From a virus, in UHGV virus genome UHGV-0212364: a DNA stretch of 55,769 nt; one strand, given 5' to 3'. The notes beneath the pieces were generated by a model. It did no database searches, was not told the origin of the DNA, and saw nothing but the letters and a program-made list of their open reading frames with translations. Within the stretch, counting starts at the first letter, position 1, and every line of letters starts with the position of its first letter. A program made the translations under genes and the position numbers. Shown here one piece after another: positions 1 to 55,769 of this stretch.

Positions 1-30
1 GTGAGATATGCTTTATACGAGGTGATAATA

Positions 31-864
31 ATGCCTATCATAGAGCAAAGCAATAGGAACCTCCCATCAGTTCTACGGCAAGATCGCACGGTCGTAAAAT
101 CAAACGATCTCATCCAAAAGAGCCGTTATGAGCTGAACATACAGCAGAACAAGGTCATGCTATATCTTATAAGCATGATAAAGCCAACGGATGATATTAC
201 TCAGGTCTACATGTTTTCGGTAAATGACTTTTGCCAAGCGTGCGGGCTGGATTCGCGTCATGGCAAGAATGTCAAGAACGCTAAAGATGCGGTTCAATCC
301 CTTGCGGATAAAAGTGTGTGGGTAGAGCAGCCAAACGGAGACGAAATACTGCTGCGCTGGCTCGATCATGTCAAATTGACAGACGGTAAAAGCCGCTTTG
401 AAGTAACATTCCACCGGGATATGTTGCCCTACTTATACGATCTGCGAGAGCGCTACACGAGCTATAAACTGTCAAACGTATTGCCGATGAAAAGCAAATA
501 CGGAGTGCGGCTATATGAGCTTTTGAAAAGCTACCAGCACATGAACAGCAACACGATAACGTTTTTGATGGGAGAACTAAGCGACCGATTGGGCGCTCAG
601 AAGTATGAACGCTATGCTGACTTCAAGCGCCGCGTGTTGGATGCAGCTATGGAGGACATAAACGAATATAGTGATCTTGACGTTGAGTATACGCCGTATT
701 CGGCTAGTGGCAAGCAGCGAGGATTCGACGGTATCACCTTCACGATAAACGAGCCTACCGCGCTGGATAAAGAGATTCGCGCGATAAGGCAGGAACGAAA
801 GCTGGATTCGCAGACCAAAGCCTCGTTCAAAACGCTGATAGAGGCTATAACGCCCGAGAATTGA
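31..864 (+). CDS. Plasmid replication initiator, Rep_3/RepB family
   Basis: VVKSNDLIQKSRYEL, KSKYGVRLYELLKS and YADFKRRVL are typical Rep_3 motifs; SD GAGGTG at 19-24 favours ATG 31; iterons lie just upstream across the window junction. Confidence 0.9.
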   Translation: MPIIEQSNRNLPSVLRQDRTVVKSNDLIQKSRYELNIQQNKVMLYLISMIKPTDDITQVYMFSVNDFCQACGLDSRHGKNVKNAKDAVQSLADKSVWVEQPNGDEILLRWLDHVKLTDGKSRFEVTFHRDMLPYLYDLRERYTSYKLSNVLPMKSKYGVRLYELLKSYQHMNSNTITFLMGELSDRLGAQKYERYADFKRRVLDAAMEDINEYSDLDVEYTPYSASGKQRGFDGITFTINEPTALDKEIRAIRQERKLDSQTKASFKTLIEAITPEN

Positions 865-961
865 TTCTAAGGCGTTTTCTGCCCGAGATGGTGTATTCGC
901 TACTCCGCCCCACAAAAACCGCTTAGAATCGATTTTAGAGCCTCTGAGGGGCATTCCCGTA

Positions 962-990
962 TTGACACCTTCCTGCGAATGTGGTATAAT
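962..990 (+). promoter_or_regulatory. Consensus sigma70/SigA promoter P1
   Basis: TTGACA(962-967)-17 bp-TATAAT(985-990) with extended TG. Confidence 0.85.
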
Positions 991-996
991 CATTAC

Positions 997-1068
997 GCGA
1001 CATGGTTGCCTATCTTTCGCATGAGGGCAGTCCGGAGGGGCTTCCGTCAACCTCTCCGGGCTGTTTTT
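997..1068 (+). ncRNA. Putative small RNA 1 (~70 nt)
   Basis: Lies between P1 and the terminator CAGTCCGGAGGGG...CCTCTCCGGGCTG-TTTTT; no credible ORF inside. Confidence 0.6.
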
Positions 1069-1072
1069 ATGT

Positions 1073-1192
1073 TTGACAACATCGCAAGACAATGATACAA
1101 TAATAAGTGTTGCTACACGGGTTATGACCAGACCCATAGGACTCATTTCCTGACAACTGAAGTCTAAGGCGGCAACCTTAGGCTTCTTTTTT
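1073..1192 (+). ncRNA. Promoter P2 plus putative small RNA 2 (~85 nt) plus terminator
   Basis: TTGACA(1073)-17 bp-TACAAT with extended TG; terminator GAAGTCTAAGG-CGGCAA-CCTTAGGCTTC-TTTTTT. Confidence 0.6.
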
Positions 1193-1267
1193 GCGTTTGA
1201 CAAAAGCATCATGGCGTGCTATCATGTATACAGCAGTCGAACAGTGATACCGCTGTGTCTGGTGTGC

Positions 1268-1295
1268 ATTTTCCCCGCGTTAGCAGGGGTGACTC
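1268..1295 (+). CRISPR. Solitary type I-E-like CRISPR repeat (single copy, not an array)
   Basis: ATTTTCCCCGCGTTAGCAGGGGTGACTC, 28 nt; resembles Firmicute I-E repeats (GTTTTCCCCGC-N4-GCGGGGGTGATCC) with one stem mismatch. Confidence 0.55.
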
Positions 1296-1334
1296 AGAAT
1301 AAGCTGTCCGATTGTCAAAGGCGGCAACGCCAAT

Positions 1335-1367
1335 GTCACTGGCCGCAAGGCCGGCGTGGATTGAAAC
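1335..1367 (+). CRISPR. Solitary type I-C-like CRISPR repeat (single copy, not an array)
   Basis: GTCACTGGCCGCAAGGCCGGCGTGGATTGAAAC, 33 nt: GTC start, GCAA-loop hairpin, canonical I-C 3' end GCGTGGATTGAAAC. Confidence 0.75.
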
Positions 1368-1554
1368 ATTTCCGGCACAAAAAAAGAGTTTACCGCCTTG
1401 CTTCGAGCAATGGCCGTAAGCTCTTTTTTGTGCCCTTTTAAGCATGTTTTTTGAAGTCAACAAGTTCAGATATACTGCAATGCCTCTGTAAGCCCCGTAT
1501 TTGACTTCTAAGGCGTTTTTGCGGGGCAGGCGCACATTTACTAGTCTGCAAAGC

Positions 1555-1588
1555 AAAAGCCCTCAGAAGCGATTCTGGGGGCTTTTTT
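1555..1588. terminator. Bidirectional intrinsic terminator
   Basis: AAAAGCCCTCAGAA-GCGA-TTCTGGGGGCTTTTTT. Confidence 0.6.
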
Positions 1589-1662
1589 CTGACATCGGAA
1601 AAATGGTTTGCCGTTTTGGTGGGGTCAACAAAATGGTCTTCACTTTTGCCTTAACTTTTTTC

Positions 1663-2613
1663 TTAGCTTTTTTCTTCACTCTTGCTTGGCGTAATAAATA
1701 GATCGTCAGGTGAGCAATGGAAAAAGTCGCAGAGCTTTTGCATCGATGCCGCATTGGGATATGCTGTGCCGGTTTCCCACATCGAAATGTAGCTGGTATG
1801 CATCCCTAAAGCTTGTGCTAACTTCTTCTGCGAAAGCCCAACAGCGCGCCGCTTCTGACGCAGCTTGGAATGCGCAATCGACCTGGACTTGACCCACTTT
1901 TGAGCAGCCGGTAAGCCCGGCTCAGGATTGCGCTGCAAGTCGTCAAGCGTGCAGCTTAACACCTGCATAGCGCGTGTGATTTGAGCGAAGCTGGGGTAAT
2001 ATTGCCCACGCTCTAAATGCCCTAAGCCACATGTGCGCGTAGTGCCCAAAAGTTCCAAACTGAGTTCGGCGCGTGACAACCCTCGCTCACATCGTAAGCG
2101 CTGCAAATTATATGCAAAGTTTGTAAAGTCAAAATCAAAGGTGCCGGGAATTTTAAGGTCGCTTACGGAGCAGCCCAACGTTTGAGCCAGTAGCAGCACC
2201 TTCTGGGCAGGCGGCATGACTTTGCCGTTTTCCCAGAGATTGACGGTATTGGCGCTGACGTGCATCCTTTGCGCTAACTCTTTGACGGTCAGCCCACAAG
2301 CCTTGCGATACCGATCTATCGAGTTAGCCTTAGGCAAAGGCGGCAAAGCTGTTGCATTAATTCGCCGCGCTTTGGTGATGATTTGTGCACCATCGGTCAA
2401 CTCATCGACAGTGCAGCCCAATGCTTGAGCAAGTGTCTTTATGTAACGCTCGCGACATGCGTGTTTGCCGCGATCCCAATTGCCGACCGTGGCAGGGGCA
2501 ACGCCGACTTGCTGTGCCAGCGTTTGCTTAGTCCATCCCTTTTGCTCGCGTAATTTACGCAGTACGCCGGGCGCAAGCTTGACGTGCTGCAGGTACGAAT
2601 ATTCAGATTTCAT
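1663..2613 (-). CDS. Multi-domain XRE/Cro-C1 HTH regulator (four HTH_3 domains)
   Basis: Four repeats of LR..R...GL(T/S)..LA...G......WE.G...P. Confidence 0.85.
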   Translation of the reverse strand: MKSEYSYLQHVKLAPGVLRKLREQKGWTKQTLAQQVGVAPATVGNWDRGKHACRERYIKTLAQALGCTVDELTDGAQIITKARRINATALPPLPKANSIDRYRKACGLTVKELAQRMHVSANTVNLWENGKVMPPAQKVLLLAQTLGCSVSDLKIPGTFDFDFTNFAYNLQRLRCERGLSRAELSLELLGTTRTCGLGHLERGQYYPSFAQITRAMQVLSCTLDDLQRNPEPGLPAAQKWVKSRSIAHSKLRQKRRAVGLSQKKLAQALGMHTSYISMWETGTAYPNAASMQKLCDFFHCSPDDLFITPSKSEEKS

Positions 2614-2618
2614 TCACA

Positions 2619-2900
2619 TCACACTTTTTCCTGCCTAGCCGCAGCAAGACTATCGTAAGTCGTCAGCGCGTCCTGATTCCCGGCGACGTATTCTGTCAGC
2701 AGCCTTGAAACAATCTCGCTCATGCTCGCAAGCCTTACCTGCGCTATCTTCTGCGCGTCGGCGTACACGTCGGCGGGCACGGCAAAGCATACGCGCTTTT
2801 TTGCATTGCTCTTGCGCGCGGGTTCTTCCTGCTCATCCCGTTCCTTGACGCTCATAAAATTGCCATACAGCCTGTCTGTATCAAATGCCTTTTTAGCCAT
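2619..2900 (-). CDS. Small ParA partner, probable ribbon-helix-helix centromere-binding protein
   Basis: Overlaps parA stop; flexible N-terminus then KRVCFAVPADVYADAQKIA..SMSEIVSRLL (RHH pattern). Confidence 0.65.
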   Translation of the reverse strand: MAKKAFDTDRLYGNFMSVKERDEQEEPARKSNAKKRVCFAVPADVYADAQKIAQVRLASMSEIVSRLLTEYVAGNQDALTTYDSLAAARQEKV

Positions 2901-3651
2901 TTTCCAAGAACTCCTTCAGAAAGTCGTTATAGTCGGCGGCGACGGTCGAACTTGCCGCATAGGTAAATATATCCTCCCGGCTTATTTGCGCTTCTTCCAC
3001 CGCTACCGCCGAACGGATGCAGGTGTGGTAAGTCGGCGCGGATATGCGCTTGCCTAGCTGCTCTGTCAGCGTCCTTATCTGACGGCCAACGTTCGTGCGC
3101 GCGTTGTATCGGGTAAACAGTATGCCCGCGATATACAGTCCGGGGTTGCAATACTTGCGCACGTTGCCGATGGTAATGTTGAGCTGGTCTATGCCGGTTG
3201 CGGCAAACACGCCCGCCGTAGTGGGTATAATCACGCAGTTCGCGGCGGTAAAGGCGTTGACGGTCAGTATGCCCAGCGACGGCGGCGTATCGACTATCAC
3301 GTAATCAATGCCCTGTAAGCCCGTCAGCGCCTCTTTAAGGCGATATTCCTTGCCCACCTGTGTTAGTTCCTGTTCGGCACTTGCAAGCATTATATTGGCC
3401 GCTAAGAGCTTATAGCGCGGTTCGCCCAATTCCTGAATCGCGCTGGATATACTGGCCTTGCCGGTCAACACTTCATACGTCGTGGGTACGTCGTACTGAT
3501 CCGCACCGCACGCGGACGATAAATTGCCCTGCGGGTCAAGGTCGATGCCCAGTACGCTGAATCCGCGATTGGCAAGCCCTGCTATCATTGCGTGCGCGGT
3601 CGTGGTTTTGCCTACGCCGCCCTTCTGATTTGCTATGACGATGGTTCTCAT
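2893..3651 (-). CDS. parA: ParA/Soj partition ATPase
   Basis: NQKGGVGKTTT deviant Walker A, DLDPQGN, VDTPPSLG; start MRTIV at 3651. Confidence 0.95.
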   Translation of the reverse strand: MRTIVIANQKGGVGKTTTAHAMIAGLANRGFSVLGIDLDPQGNLSSACGADQYDVPTTYEVLTGKASISSAIQELGEPRYKLLAANIMLASAEQELTQVGKEYRLKEALTGLQGIDYVIVDTPPSLGILTVNAFTAANCVIIPTTAGVFAATGIDQLNITIGNVRKYCNPGLYIAGILFTRYNARTNVGRQIRTLTEQLGKRISAPTYHTCIRSAVAVEEAQISREDIFTYAASSTVAADYNDFLKEFLENG

Positions 3652-3667
3652 ATCTCTCACGCTCCGA

Positions 3668-3802
3668 TTATGTGCGTTATGTCTGTTATGCCATATATAT
3701 AATGGGCATAATTTATGCTCATTATGATACACCGATAATGGGCATAATGTCAATACGTTATGTCGGTTATTCAATCGGCATAACAAACATAACAAGCATA
3801 AC
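3668..3802. repeat. TTATG/CATAA repeat array, candidate parS/operator
   Basis: About ten TTATG/CATAA units, often at 9-bp period (cataacaaa cataacaag cataacaaa), directly upstream of parA. Confidence 0.7.
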
Positions 3803-3842
3803 AAAAAAGCGGGCGCATGTCGCGTCCGCTCCTGCCTTATTT

Positions 3843-34187: not shown

Positions 34188-34339
34188 GACACTCACTCCT
34201 TTTCGCGGTAAAGTATACCATAATGTACACACTTGCGTAAGTAGGCAAATTGTACAAACGCTTTCATGCAGGTATGGACGGTTTTCCGGGGTTGCGTACT
34301 TTGCAAAGTAGGCGTATAATATATCTGAGCAGAGGAAAC

Positions 34340-34395
34340 GCAGAGTGACGGCCCACATGGGCCGGTAATGCGGCGAGCCGGTCACAAGCCCGGCT
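34340..34395 (+). ncRNA. Twister ribozyme (circularly permuted, P5-type)
   Basis: GCA-GAG-UGA, P1 CGGCCC/GGGCCG, U^AA-UGC-GGC, P4 AGCCGG-UCACAAGC-CCGGCU; cut 34366/34367. Confidence 0.8.
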
Positions 34396-34418
34396 AATAT
34401 ATACGCATGGAGGACAAA

Positions 34419-35351
34419 ATGGGAAAGAAGTATGAGCTGGTCAAAGAAGAGTCCATGATAGTAGACGAGATATATACGGTATACCGCGTTAAGGCGCTGC
34501 GCGATTTCGGTGACGTTCACGCGGGCGACGTGGGCGGCTGGGTCGAGTACGACGGTGATATAAGCGACGACGGCAGCGCTTGGGTATACGATGATGCTAA
34601 AATTTACGGCGGCACCATAGTATGTGACGATGCCAAAGTCGGCGGAAACGCTTGCATCATGGACGGCCGCATTTATGGCAATGCCCGCGTGTACGGCAAT
34701 GCCTACGTCGAAACCACCCACGTTTACGGCAATGCCGAGGTATGCGGCGATGCCAATGTACACGGCGGTGACGTATACGGCGGCGCAAAAGTTTACGGTC
34801 GCGCAGAAATACAGGGCGAAGCCAAGGTTTACGGGAATGCCGAAGTATACGGTTTGAGCCTGATAAGCGACAACGCGCAAGTGTATGGCAGCGCGAAAAT
34901 CCACGGCGACGGCGAATGCTGTGTCAGCGTATGCGATAACGCCGAGGTCTGCGAGAATGCCGAAGTATGTGGGCACGCGTCCGTGTATGGCAACGCCAAA
35001 GTCACCGACAATGTTAAAATCAGTGGGCGCGCTCAAATTTATGGGCAAGCGAAGGTTTGGGGCGACGCTAAAGTATACGGTTGCGCCGAAGTTTACGGTA
35101 AAGCAGATGTTGGGGGCGACGCTAAAGTATACGATTACGCCACGGTTTGCGACGAAGCGAAAGTATACGATGACGCGAAGGTATACGGCCACGCCAGAAT
35201 ATATGATTGGCCTAAGGTATACGGCAACGCTGAGATATACGACCATGCCGAAATATTCGGCGATGCAGAGGTGTACGGAGACACTAAAGTTTGTGGAGAC
35301 ACTAAAATCGATACCTGGGATGTTGACGCTTGGGGGGATGAAAATGAATGA
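34419..35351 (+). CDS. Hexapeptide-repeat beta-helix protein
   Basis: RVKALRDFGDV..GD.GGWVE followed by (VYGNAK)n. Confidence 0.85.
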   Translation: MGKKYELVKEESMIVDEIYTVYRVKALRDFGDVHAGDVGGWVEYDGDISDDGSAWVYDDAKIYGGTIVCDDAKVGGNACIMDGRIYGNARVYGNAYVETTHVYGNAEVCGDANVHGGDVYGGAKVYGRAEIQGEAKVYGNAEVYGLSLISDNAQVYGSAKIHGDGECCVSVCDNAEVCENAEVCGHASVYGNAKVTDNVKISGRAQIYGQAKVWGDAKVYGCAEVYGKADVGGDAKVYDYATVCDEAKVYDDAKVYGHARIYDWPKVYGNAEIYDHAEIFGDAEVYGDTKVCGDTKIDTWDVDAWGDENE

Positions 35352-47417: not shown

Positions 47418-47873
47418 CTAAAACGGCAGGTCAGCCGGGTTAACCGGCTTAAATGTACTTGGGTCAGCCGCGTATTGGCCATCCGTCATTTCCACGCTGT
47501 TTTCGCCCACTGACGGGGCGTAGAATGCGTTTGCGGGGGATGCTATGTATGCCGACGCGCCCGCCACGCCCACATAGTCAGCGGTAATGGTCTCGTAAAT
47601 CTTGCCCTCGACTACCCGCTTGGTGTAAAGCCCGGTCACAAGTACCACGTCGCCCACCTGTATGCTTTTAGCCAGGTCAATCATGGGGTACCAGAAGTCG
47701 CAGTCGATGAAGTACCCCTTCTTGGTCTGGGAATTGTACCCGTGCTGCACGCTTATGACGTACTTTACCTTGTCGCCGCCGTAATCGCGCTTTCTAGGGG
47801 CTATTCTTATTTGCCCGGTCACTATGGCGGCTATCTTCTGGCCGCCATAGTTGTAGTTCACAAGCATTAGCAT
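47418..47873 (-). CDS. Divergent single-stranded DNA-binding protein
   Basis: OB-fold pattern GDVVLVTG, C-terminal DLPF. Confidence 0.7.
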   Translation of the reverse strand: MLMLVNYNYGGQKIAAIVTGQIRIAPRKRDYGGDKVKYVISVQHGYNSQTKKGYFIDCDFWYPMIDLAKSIQVGDVVLVTGLYTKRVVEGKIYETITADYVGVAGASAYIASPANAFYAPSVGENSVEMTDGQYAADPSTFKPVNPADLPF

Positions 47874-49676
47874 TATTCGTGTACCTCGCCGGGCATGTTC
47901 TGCGCGTCGGCATTTTGCTCATTCTGCATTTCTTCGCCGTCGGTTATTGCAAATTCGGCCTCGGCCATGTTGATTTCATTGGCCGCTTCGTCGTCGAATG
48001 TGCCGTGCGCTATCGCGTCTGCCGCCGCCACTGCCGCCGGGATCGCGGTCTGGTAGTCTATGCTCATCAGTCCCCACTTACCGATTAGCTGCCTCAGCAC
48101 GGTTTTAGCGGCCATCGCTTCAAAGTTTTCTCGCCAGCCCTTGCTCATGTTCTGGCCCTTGCGGTTCTTGCGCTCATGGGCTTCTATCTGGCGGCGGCTC
48201 ATGTAGATTATCTTTTCCGTGCCGTTTATCAGGCGATAATATCCGCACCAGCCGATAATCGGCAGTGCCTCGCGCTGTTCCTCATCCTCGATAAACTCCA
48301 GCTCAATGTCTTCTGTCAGTCGGTTAAACTTCTTCAATTCGCCCTCGCGCACATCCACGACGTTGATCTTCTGGTATACACCCGTGCGCATGGCAAGCTG
48401 TAGCAAACCTTTATCACGTCCCCCACGGTTTATCATCCCGTGGGCGTGGACTATCTCTTCTGCCGTTCTGGCAGTTCCGCACTTGGAGCGGTTCTCATCT
48501 CCGCCCTACACCGTTACACTCATCACGGTTAGTCTCTACACGTTCAAGATGGTAGCCATTGTGGAGTGCCTTTGTTTTGCCCTTGATCTGATTGTATATC
48601 GTGCATTTGGTGCAATGTAATGCTTGTGCGCAAGCATTGGCATTTTCAAACATCTGCCCAGTTTCGACTATCCTTACGGCATACTTACCTGTGCCAATAA
48701 AAGCATCGTGCAGCTTCTTTCGCGTACTTTCTAACACTGCATGTCCTTTTGCAGGGCCAGTTAGCTGATGCTTTATAATCTGCTGCTTCTTTTCGCCGGG
48801 CAATTTGTCCCAATATTGACGCACAGAAACACTCGTTCGCCGTCGCTGTTCGTCCGGGATTGCTTTACCTATGGTGTTGTATTCAGGCTGCAATTCGTGA
48901 ATCCAATGCAATTCCCGTTCGCTCAACTTGCTTGCATCGCATTCTTCAAGTACAGTCAGTTCGTATGCACCAATACCATATTCAGCCAGCTCGCGCTTAA
49001 ATAAAGGCGATTTCGTAGTTTGGGAAGCGCGCGGCGTTTTGTGCTCCATGTACCGGCGCTTTATATTAATGGACTTTCCCACGTAGCGATTGCCTGTTTT
49101 AACGTTGGTCAACATATAAATGCCTGTCATTGCAAGTACCTCCAGCGTTATTTGTTCAGCTCCCGCTACCATCTTGCTTCGCACGGTATCACCCTTAATG
49201 TTGATGGGTTTCACCGTTAGCACTTTTTTCAAGTACACCCCCTGCGATACGGGGTTCACGGAATCATTTTTGACCACGCATTCCTGCGTGGTGGGGCAAA
49301 AGATTTACCCCAGCAGGAACGTCGCCTCCATGCGTCCCTGATTGCGGAACGGCACGATATAGGCATATCCAAGGTTAGGTTCAATCGGCAAATCAAAGCT
49401 CGCGGCCTTCAGCGCCGCCTGTATAACCGTGTTAGGCGCAGTCGCAAACGCCTCTTGAAGCTGGGGTGTGGAGTTGCACAGCGTAATCAGCGCGCTTACA
49501 AACTGGGGCGTGCGCTTGCCCAGCAGTTCGTCGAGCCGCTTGCGGTAGCCCTCGCTGTCCAGCAGGCTGTTCATCATCACCGTCATGCTCTGCTTGACCT
49601 GCGGCTGTGCCGCCGCCATATTCTGTCCCTGCGCCGCGCGCGCCATCTGGGTATTCTGTATCCTTGCCATACTCAC
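47873..49676 (-). CDS. recT: RecT recombinase split by an intron (exons 49307-49676 and 47873-48414; 303 aa spliced)
   Basis: LGYAYIVPF; splicing restores FLLG-YKGLLQLAMRTG; MAAKTVLR. Confidence 0.9.
48415..49306 (-). mobile_element. Group I self-splicing intron, 892 nt
   Basis: P1 GGGGU^...GCCCC with U-G at the splice site; R GUAGAGACUA; S AAGAGAUAGUCC; P9 hairpin; terminal G. Confidence 0.9.
48495..49130 (-). CDS. Intron-encoded GIY-YIG homing endonuclease
   Basis: GIY-x10-YVG, R..EH, E, PEYN; SD GGAGGT. Confidence 0.9.
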   Translation of the reverse strand: MTGIYMLTNVKTGNRYVGKSINIKRRYMEHKTPRASQTTKSPLFKRELAEYGIGAYELTVLEECDASKLSERELHWIHELQPEYNTIGKAIPDEQRRRTSVSVRQYWDKLPGEKKQQIIKHQLTGPAKGHAVLESTRKKLHDAFIGTGKYAVRIVETGQMFENANACAQALHCTKCTIYNQIKGKTKALHNGYHLERVETNRDECNGVGRR

Positions 49677-55340: not shown

Positions 55341-55586
55341 TGGGGACAATTTTGTTTGTGTATAACCTGTTGAAAAGTTGTTGATAGCTCTGCATTTTCT
55401 GTTGAAAAGTTGTGCATGGAATTGGCGCAAACGTTCGTATTTTGGCGTTTTGAATGGGTTTTCGCGCGTTTTTGGCTCAAAATCGTCGAACTAAATGTCA
55501 CTCTATCGAACTAAAAGTCACTCTATTTCGAACTAAACGTCACCTAAATCGAACTAAAAGTCACTCTATTTCGAACTAAACGTCAC
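55341..55586 (+). repeat. Plasmid origin: DnaA-box-like sites plus five iterons
   Basis: TCGAACTAAA(T/A/C)GTCAC at 55486, 55506, 55528, 55549, 55571; TGTGTATAA at 55357-55365. Confidence 0.88.
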
Positions 55587-55769
55587 CCTAATTTTTTTTG
55601 CTTCCTTATATTCGCGCGCGCGAAAGTAACCTAGAAAGTAAGAAAATATAGAAAGTATCTTCTTACAGGAAAGTAGGAAGCTCCCCGGAACGAGCGCGCG
55701 GAACATTTTCAAAATTAAGGTGACACGGAAAGAAAAAAGTCACCCAAAAGTATTGACTTCCATTCTTGA

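Follow-up and report, generated by a model that had tools for sequence, protein, structure and literature searches.

Why would a phage-plasmid in which no cas genes are recognised carry two CRISPR-like repeats of different subtypes within one short predicted transcript? The question is raised by the virus genome UHGV-0212364, whose whole stretch of 55,769 nt (55.8 kb) was analysed and is called the window below. A sequence-only reading had described a promoter-driven small RNA at this locus as a candidate anti-CRISPR directed against both type I-E and type I-C systems. The sequence itself shows the two repeat types, how they are conserved, their modular origin and their recurrence in unrelated phages; the function discussed below is a prediction.

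Genome context and the promoter island behind rep

UHGV-0212364 is a phage-plasmid, combining Rep3, ParA and iteron-like repeats with a full tailed-phage gene set. Its features relevant here are as follows.

1..864, + strand: Rep3 plasmid replication initiator (PF01051 and PF21205)
962..1072, + strand: promoter P1 (12/12) and RNA1, a conserved small hairpin RNA (fold z -5.3)
1073..1192, + strand: promoter P2 and RNA2, a three-way junction plus terminator, an optional module (promoter and fold scans)
1197..1225, + strand: promoter P3, predicted, sigma-70 type with extended -10 (11/12 consensus)
1232..1267, + strand: putative 5' leader of RNA3 (36 nt; a pairing of 1233-1245 with 1303-1315 is predicted)
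1268..1295, + strand: type I-E-like repeat, 28 nt (23/28, in a partly circular comparison, to the 58-copy array repeat of L109)
1296..1334, + strand: 39-nt junction segment (5' half, I-E module; GNRA hairpin 1320-1331, I-C module)
1335..1367, + strand: type I-C-like repeat, 33 nt (GNRA-capped stem 1339-1354, canonical 3' handle)
1368..1373, + strand: short segment after the I-C repeat (6 nt longer in relatives, where it opens with a constant 9-mer, a possible seed)
1374..1434, + strand: predicted terminator formed by a long hairpin with A- and T-tracts (z -8.75; retained in L001, L011 and L100)
2893..3804, - strand: ParA partition ATPase (PHROGs/Pfam profile scans)
55505-55590: iteron-like repeats

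No cas genes were recognised among 85 ORFs of the window in PHROGs scans or 27 ORFs in Pfam scans, in agreement with the sequence-only reading; a single weak Cas4-like side match fell on a RecE/YqaJ exonuclease (PHROGs, 85 ORFs). Elsewhere in the window, a Twister-P5 ribozyme (34339-34393; 66 bits, Rfam) directly precedes a beta-solenoid repeat ORF (34407-35351), and a GIY-YIG homing endonuclease gene (48495-49277) is placed between RecT-like pieces (49305-49676 and 47873-48436), which suggests an intron or a split gene.

The closest named cluster for Rep is a distant one from Oscillospiraceae (45%), that for ParA is from Oribacterium (63% cluster), and the best terminase match is to a Clostridium innocuum phage (44%). 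The phage amidase was found in none of 300 Clostridia genomes, and 223 host spacers gave only matches of 14-18 nt to the window. Clostridia were assumed as the source of host controls and may not be the true host group.

Behind rep, three near-consensus promoters (962-990, 1073-1101 and 1197-1225) score 12, 11 and 11 of 12; positions 1-3000 hold seven promoter-like sites, against a shuffle mean of 2.8. A structured stretch and then a T-run hairpin come after each of the three, and the repeat cassette is the third such unit (RNA3), with the other two (RNA1 and RNA2) immediately 5' of it. RNA1 (997-1072) consists of a short 5' hairpin and a long GC-rich hairpin. Its region is 85-99% identical in G001, G002 and L011, and its first 20 nt are identical in L001, L011 and L100; it matched no Rfam family and no antisense target within the window. 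RNA2 (1108-1192) is present in five copies (the window, X1, X2, X15 and X17) and absent from seven (L001, L011, L100, X3, X4, X6 and X7), dropping out between duplicated promoter starts. It has an 11-nt stretch in common with the junction hairpin of RNA3. Searches with RNA2 and with the extra module of L001 (see below) gave only chance matches in 226 and 225 genomes, respectively, and no tRNA.

Organization of the RNA3 cassette

When the sequence was re-read, every part of the cassette that had been proposed (promoter, leader, two repeats, intervening segment and terminator hairpin) was present at the positions given for it. P3 reads TTGACA-17-TATCAT with a TG element, and its -35 and -10 boxes are retained in L001, L011 and L100. 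Each repeat subtype occurs once in the window, the two repeats lying 39 nt apart. All 200 shuffles fold less well than the predicted RNA, 1232-1432 (z -3.9), and for the hairpin at 1374-1434 none of 200 shuffles was as good (z -8.75); this hairpin was not among the calls of a simple terminator scan. Rfam returned nothing at gathering score for RNA3, with a weak match to CRISPR-DR9 (E 0.025). A 76-aa ORF at 1211-1441 was rejected as a gene, as it starts inside P3 and has a stop codon in L011. Run X17, labelled RNA-Seq and flagged as probably DNA (two 151-nt contigs), was excluded as expression evidence either way.

Subtype assignment of the two repeats

The subtype labels were examined against a sample of genomes rather than a repeat database; within it, the I-E-like unit aligns best, without gaps, with the repeat of a host I-E array at 1268, with 23 of 28 positions identical (82%; maximum of 21 in 100 shuffled windows), a partly circular comparison in that the host repeat was located with a pattern from the window itself, while the best of nine host I-C repeats matches the I-C-like unit at 1335 with 26 of 33 positions (79%; shuffle maximum 23), so that both units stay below 90% identity to the best repeat found. 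Both matches exceed those of shuffled sequence.

A 20-nt pattern from the I-E unit occurs in nine stretches of a species-genome collection, three of them on one contig (L109, in G003), which carries the 58-copy array; most other matches are CRISPR-like arrays or mini-arrays. One mini-array with the same loop (L103, in G004) lies on a contig that also encodes Cas6e and a long array of 28-nt repeats. No Cas6e match was obtained in G003, the genome with the 58-copy array, and a strict I-E pattern was found in 0 of 401 genomes. A degenerate I-C pattern occurred in 10 of 401 sampled Clostridia genomes, mostly in arrays (reversed control, 0), and Cas8c was detected in four of five tested genomes with this pattern. 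Both repeat types occur in host arrays, so the subtype assignments have real arrays behind them even though the two units have diverged. Other I-E units of one or two repeats, again with this loop, were observed on other viral contigs and in a MAG (L095, L092/L094 and L105).

Conservation and modular origin

The fused I-E/I-C unit is also present in L011 and L100/G002, where RNA3 is 96% identical, and it occurs on single contigs in seven of the eight sequencing runs examined (from 21); the cassette does therefore recur in related contigs. Within 1232-1366, one run comparison gave a single substitution, from G-C to G-U in the I-C stem, and a second gave none among the matches listed. The rep gene is much less conserved than RNA3, being 72% identical in L011 and different in G002. 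The rep ends also differ in X1, X2 and X4, and the RNA cassette stays while close relatives exchange rep.

In L001, the Rep protein is 99% identical to that of the window, yet the cassette is arranged otherwise. The I-E unit has its own promoter and is followed by a different structured module with a terminator, then by a second promoter and three I-C repeats, which are mutually different and end in the same final terminator as the window cassette. The first ~20 nt of the 39-nt segment stand behind the I-E repeat, and the small GNRA hairpin precedes the I-C repeat in the separate unit. Since L001 splits the 39-nt segment between two units, this segment represents a junction of two modules. The module behind the I-E unit (L001 4205-4290) contains a small hairpin inside a long predicted stem; this hairpin presumably resembles a Cas12a repeat. 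The separate promoter with three I-C repeats (L001 4361-4716) has structured segments between the repeats (z -8.6).

Just behind the I-C repeat, the window copy is 6 nt shorter than every relative examined, which may reflect a real allele or an assembly error. The 9 nt after the I-C handle are constant in L011, L100 and seven runs, and the next bases vary.

The same layout in unrelated phages

An IMG/VR scan, limited to the I-E-then-I-C order and this subtype pair, sought an I-E hairpin followed by an I-C tail 48-78 nt on and returned 11 loci, one of which is the L100 contig. Three others contain mixed I-E then I-C units:

L312 952-1160
L320 915-1146
L315 995-1085

Both L312 and L320 have the complete layout of promoter, I-E repeat, segment, I-C-like repeat, short segment and terminator, with intervening segments of 43 and 32 nt, respectively, and a shortened I-C-like stem. 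Their records have 0 and 2 distant proteins in common with the window, respectively, and gave no Cas6e match; in both, the units adjoin lysis genes. L315 is borderline, with two I-E repeats followed by an I-C tail only. The remaining seven loci were set aside (four arrays with I-E repeats only, a tRNA, a chance match and a lone I-C repeat preceded by a terminator). The cassette had no match in a GenBank phage set and only chance matches in plasmids.

Signs of selection on the repeat hairpins

In the I-C stems of five cassette repeats, 94% of cells are paired, compared with 11-40% for slid controls, and five of seven pairs have changed on both sides; this covariation is reached by 0 of 500 shuffles. 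The repeats are drawn from only three contigs (three of them from one), which makes the covariation count a thin one. All five repeats keep a GNRA loop and the canonical 3' handle. The I-E hairpin is invariant in all four aligned copies, including A1285, which is G in the host repeat, and its handle is degenerate and variable at two positions.

A stem joining the leader to the sequence behind the I-E repeat is predicted in the window, L001 and L312 (10 bp in L312), with pair probabilities of 0.66-0.93 in the window and about 0.5 in L011. All substitutions in this closing stem retain or improve pairing, a result equalled by 119 of 500 shuffles. Among 97 host spacer pairs, 16-39% pair as well by two ensemble measures, the stricter of which leaves 0 pairs in the window, so that the stem does not exceed controls; by duplex energy, the corresponding share of host-spacer controls is 3% for L001 and 16% for the window. 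Structural occlusion of the segments after I-C repeats was rejected as a general feature, with only one of seven beyond 106 host controls.

RNA3 as a putative decoy for two Cascade subtypes

RNA anti-CRISPRs known as Racrs (RacrIF1, RacrIE1/2 and RacrIC1) derive from solitary repeat units (Camara-Wilpert et al. 2023, PMC10651486, main text). According to the same text, RacrIF1's product lying upstream of the cut binds to Cas6f and to Cas7f without Cas5f and Cas8f, and the handle is dispensable. RNA3 resembles a Racr in being an intergenic repeat mimic with an intact hairpin on a mobile element without recognised cas genes, in having its own predicted promoter (less than 250 bp upstream) and a spacer-sized leader before the repeat, and in that I-E and I-C are both known Racr targets. 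Unlike a Racr, it is not solitary, its two repeats being of different subtypes and placed 39 nt apart in one predicted transcript, and no acr gene is recognised beside the cassette.

Quite probably, RNA3 has an anti-CRISPR role of some kind; decoy and guide readings of that role are not mutually exclusive. The specific proposal that this RNA of ~200 nt acts as a decoy against host I-E and I-C systems by sequestering Cascade subunits is, on balance, probable. P3 would drive RNA3. The I-E hairpin would be bound and cut by the Cas6e of the host and the I-C hairpin by its Cas5d, at the 3' stem base in both cases, where these nucleases cut. Three products would result: a 5' product of leader and I-E hairpin without handle, similar to the inhibitory RacrIF1 product; a chimeric middle product of the degenerate I-E handle, the 39 nt and the I-C hairpin; and a 3' product with the intact I-C handle, the short segment and the terminator. 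These might compete with host crRNAs for Cas6e, Cas5d and Cas7, and the phage-plasmid could then be protected by one transcript in host strains of either subtype. The I-C unit, with its retained handle, could load Cas5d and Cas7 either as a decoy or as a guide.

By analogy with RacrIF1, the I-E unit looks like a sequestering decoy in its leader of 36 nt, its constant hairpin and its variable handle, and an invariant hairpin with a varying handle is as expected if the upstream product matters. Several features count against a decoy. The I-E stem is interrupted or bulged by A1285, so that Cas6e might fail to recognise it, and the predicted pairing of the leader could keep Cas7 from loading onto the 5' product. 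The identity of both units to the best host repeats found, below 90%, and the lack of a recognised acr gene beside the cassette also weigh on that side. The main idea of the sequence-only reading, one RNA with processable-looking repeats of two subtypes and an anti-CRISPR role, thus gains support from the host-repeat matches, the I-C covariation, the retention across rep exchanges and the layout in unrelated phages, its function remaining predicted.

Guide and other readings of the cassette

In a second reading, the I-C unit, and perhaps the I-E unit too, loads host Cascade and represses a host cas or toxin promoter, in addition to competing for Cas proteins, as in Cracrs. This is rather unlikely as the main explanation, though with a real chance. 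The constant 9-mer after the I-C handle suits a guide better than a pure decoy: the handle before it is canonical in all copies, the last unit of L001 opens with a 7/9 variant of it, and the ATAAT of a -10 box is found in its reverse complement. On the I-E side, 23 nt separate the handle from the small hairpin, within the 21-24 nt of CracrIE guides given in the preprint text (Liu et al., bioRxiv 10.1101/2024.10.29.618823). Host Clostridia loci do have autoregulatory mini-arrays of such a kind. However, no PAM-adjacent seed match above shuffles was found in 55 cas5 loci of sampled Clostridia, a weak negative in that these loci are perhaps not the host's; the conserved I-C seeds reached at best 7-8, against mostly 7-12 for shuffled seeds (55 cas5 loci, 240 kb). 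These loci mix I-C and I-E operons, because PF09704 also matches I-E Cas5. As a positive control, the same test recovered the targets of host mini-arrays, with 16 matches in L291, L294 and L300 and 14 in L103. Most of the 9-mer is also gone from the window's own copy. If a guide is present, the segment after the I-C repeat would be a better candidate than the 39-nt segment, for which the sequence-only reading had offered a guide containing TTGACA on the reverse strand; that motif lies at the module junction, is absent from L001 and is not conserved, which speaks against this alternative. An unfiltered listing of 8-mer seeds was discarded as guide evidence, being noise.

Promoter-driven mini-arrays 5' of cas genes, with short spacers matching nearby sequence, were observed in L291, L294, L300, L283 and L103; judged from these matches, they are probably autoregulatory in the manner of CreR.

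Another possibility is that only one unit works, or that captured repeats were turned into a structured phage RNA with a different job, such as control of replication or lysogeny. The position of the cassette directly 3' of rep, among two further small RNAs of unexplained role, the fixed mismatch in the I-E stem and the shortened I-C stems of L312 and L320 would all suit such a role. It is nevertheless unlikely, given that the cassette is retained through rep exchange, adjoins lysis genes rather than the replicon in L312 and L320, and has its covariation concentrated in the I-C stem, the one recognised by Cas proteins. Very unlikely is a viral mini-array through which host Cascade would be turned against rival phages or plasmids: despite the three I-C repeats in a row in L001 and the viral mini-arrays against related viruses described in PMC11656645, the known ones have, as far as described there, host-identical repeats, while those of the cassette are diverged and mutually different, the intervening segments (one of 58 nt) are almost constant across isolates, no 13-nt segment match occurs elsewhere in the window, G001, G406 or G407, and no segment match was found in phage and plasmid collections.

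Relation to known systems

Besides Racrs, three described classes come close to RNA3. The main text of the Cracr preprint (Liu et al., bioRxiv 10.1101/2024.10.29.618823) reports 30 arrays, the RNAs of one array targeting variants of the same type. Like Cracrs, which include I-C and I-E arrays, RNA3 is a predicted viral transcript of several crRNA-like units, in which the repeats are degenerate and the short segments resemble guides; unlike them, it mixes I-E and I-C repeats, outside the same-type definition, and no promoter target was found in the sampled loci. The CreR/crlRNA mini-arrays of hosts, as presented in the text of Shmakov et al. (bioRxiv 10.1101/2023.03.03.530964), have the same succession of promoter, repeat, short segment and degenerate second hairpin. 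Such host mini-arrays are found within cas loci and have a match to their own promoter, a result reproduced here for L291, L294 and L300; RNA3 is located on a phage-plasmid and combines two subtypes. Virus-borne mini-CRISPR arrays, in the account given in PMC11656645, are also short viral repeat arrays without cas genes; in contrast to them, the RNA3 repeats are diverged and of two types, with no protospacer match. RNA3 most likely works like a Racr, to judge by these comparisons, and falls outside strict membership of both Racrs (solitary) and Cracrs (same type).

The RNA anti-CRISPRs of these papers have, according to the main texts, a single repeat or a single type. No viral transcript combining repeats of different subtypes is described in the literature consulted, mostly open, though the SRU tables of PMC10651486 or Table S2 of the Cracr preprint could list such cases. 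SRUFinder drops full matches no more than 100 bp apart and matches of less than 90% identity; the layout of RNA3 sets out a search lying, by design, outside published SRU pipelines.

A bolder, tentative but possible extension is that phages have repeatedly and independently built modular multi-subtype anti-CRISPR transcripts, each cut by two host Cas nucleases and disabling both I-E and I-C, as a decoy for one and as a promoter-silencing guide for the other, within a swappable island whose further parts (RNA1, RNA2 and the Cas12a-like hairpin of L001) are directed against further systems, and that this class has been missed by published pipelines because they leave out adjacent or mixed repeats. 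If the two-subtype decoy is real, type I tools would gain a small off-switch of broad reach. It would also mean that phages can multiplex across subtypes by RNA alone, with two Cascade subtypes addressed per 200-nt RNA, and would account for how a phage-plasmid that persists in the gut deals with host strains of differing CRISPR systems.
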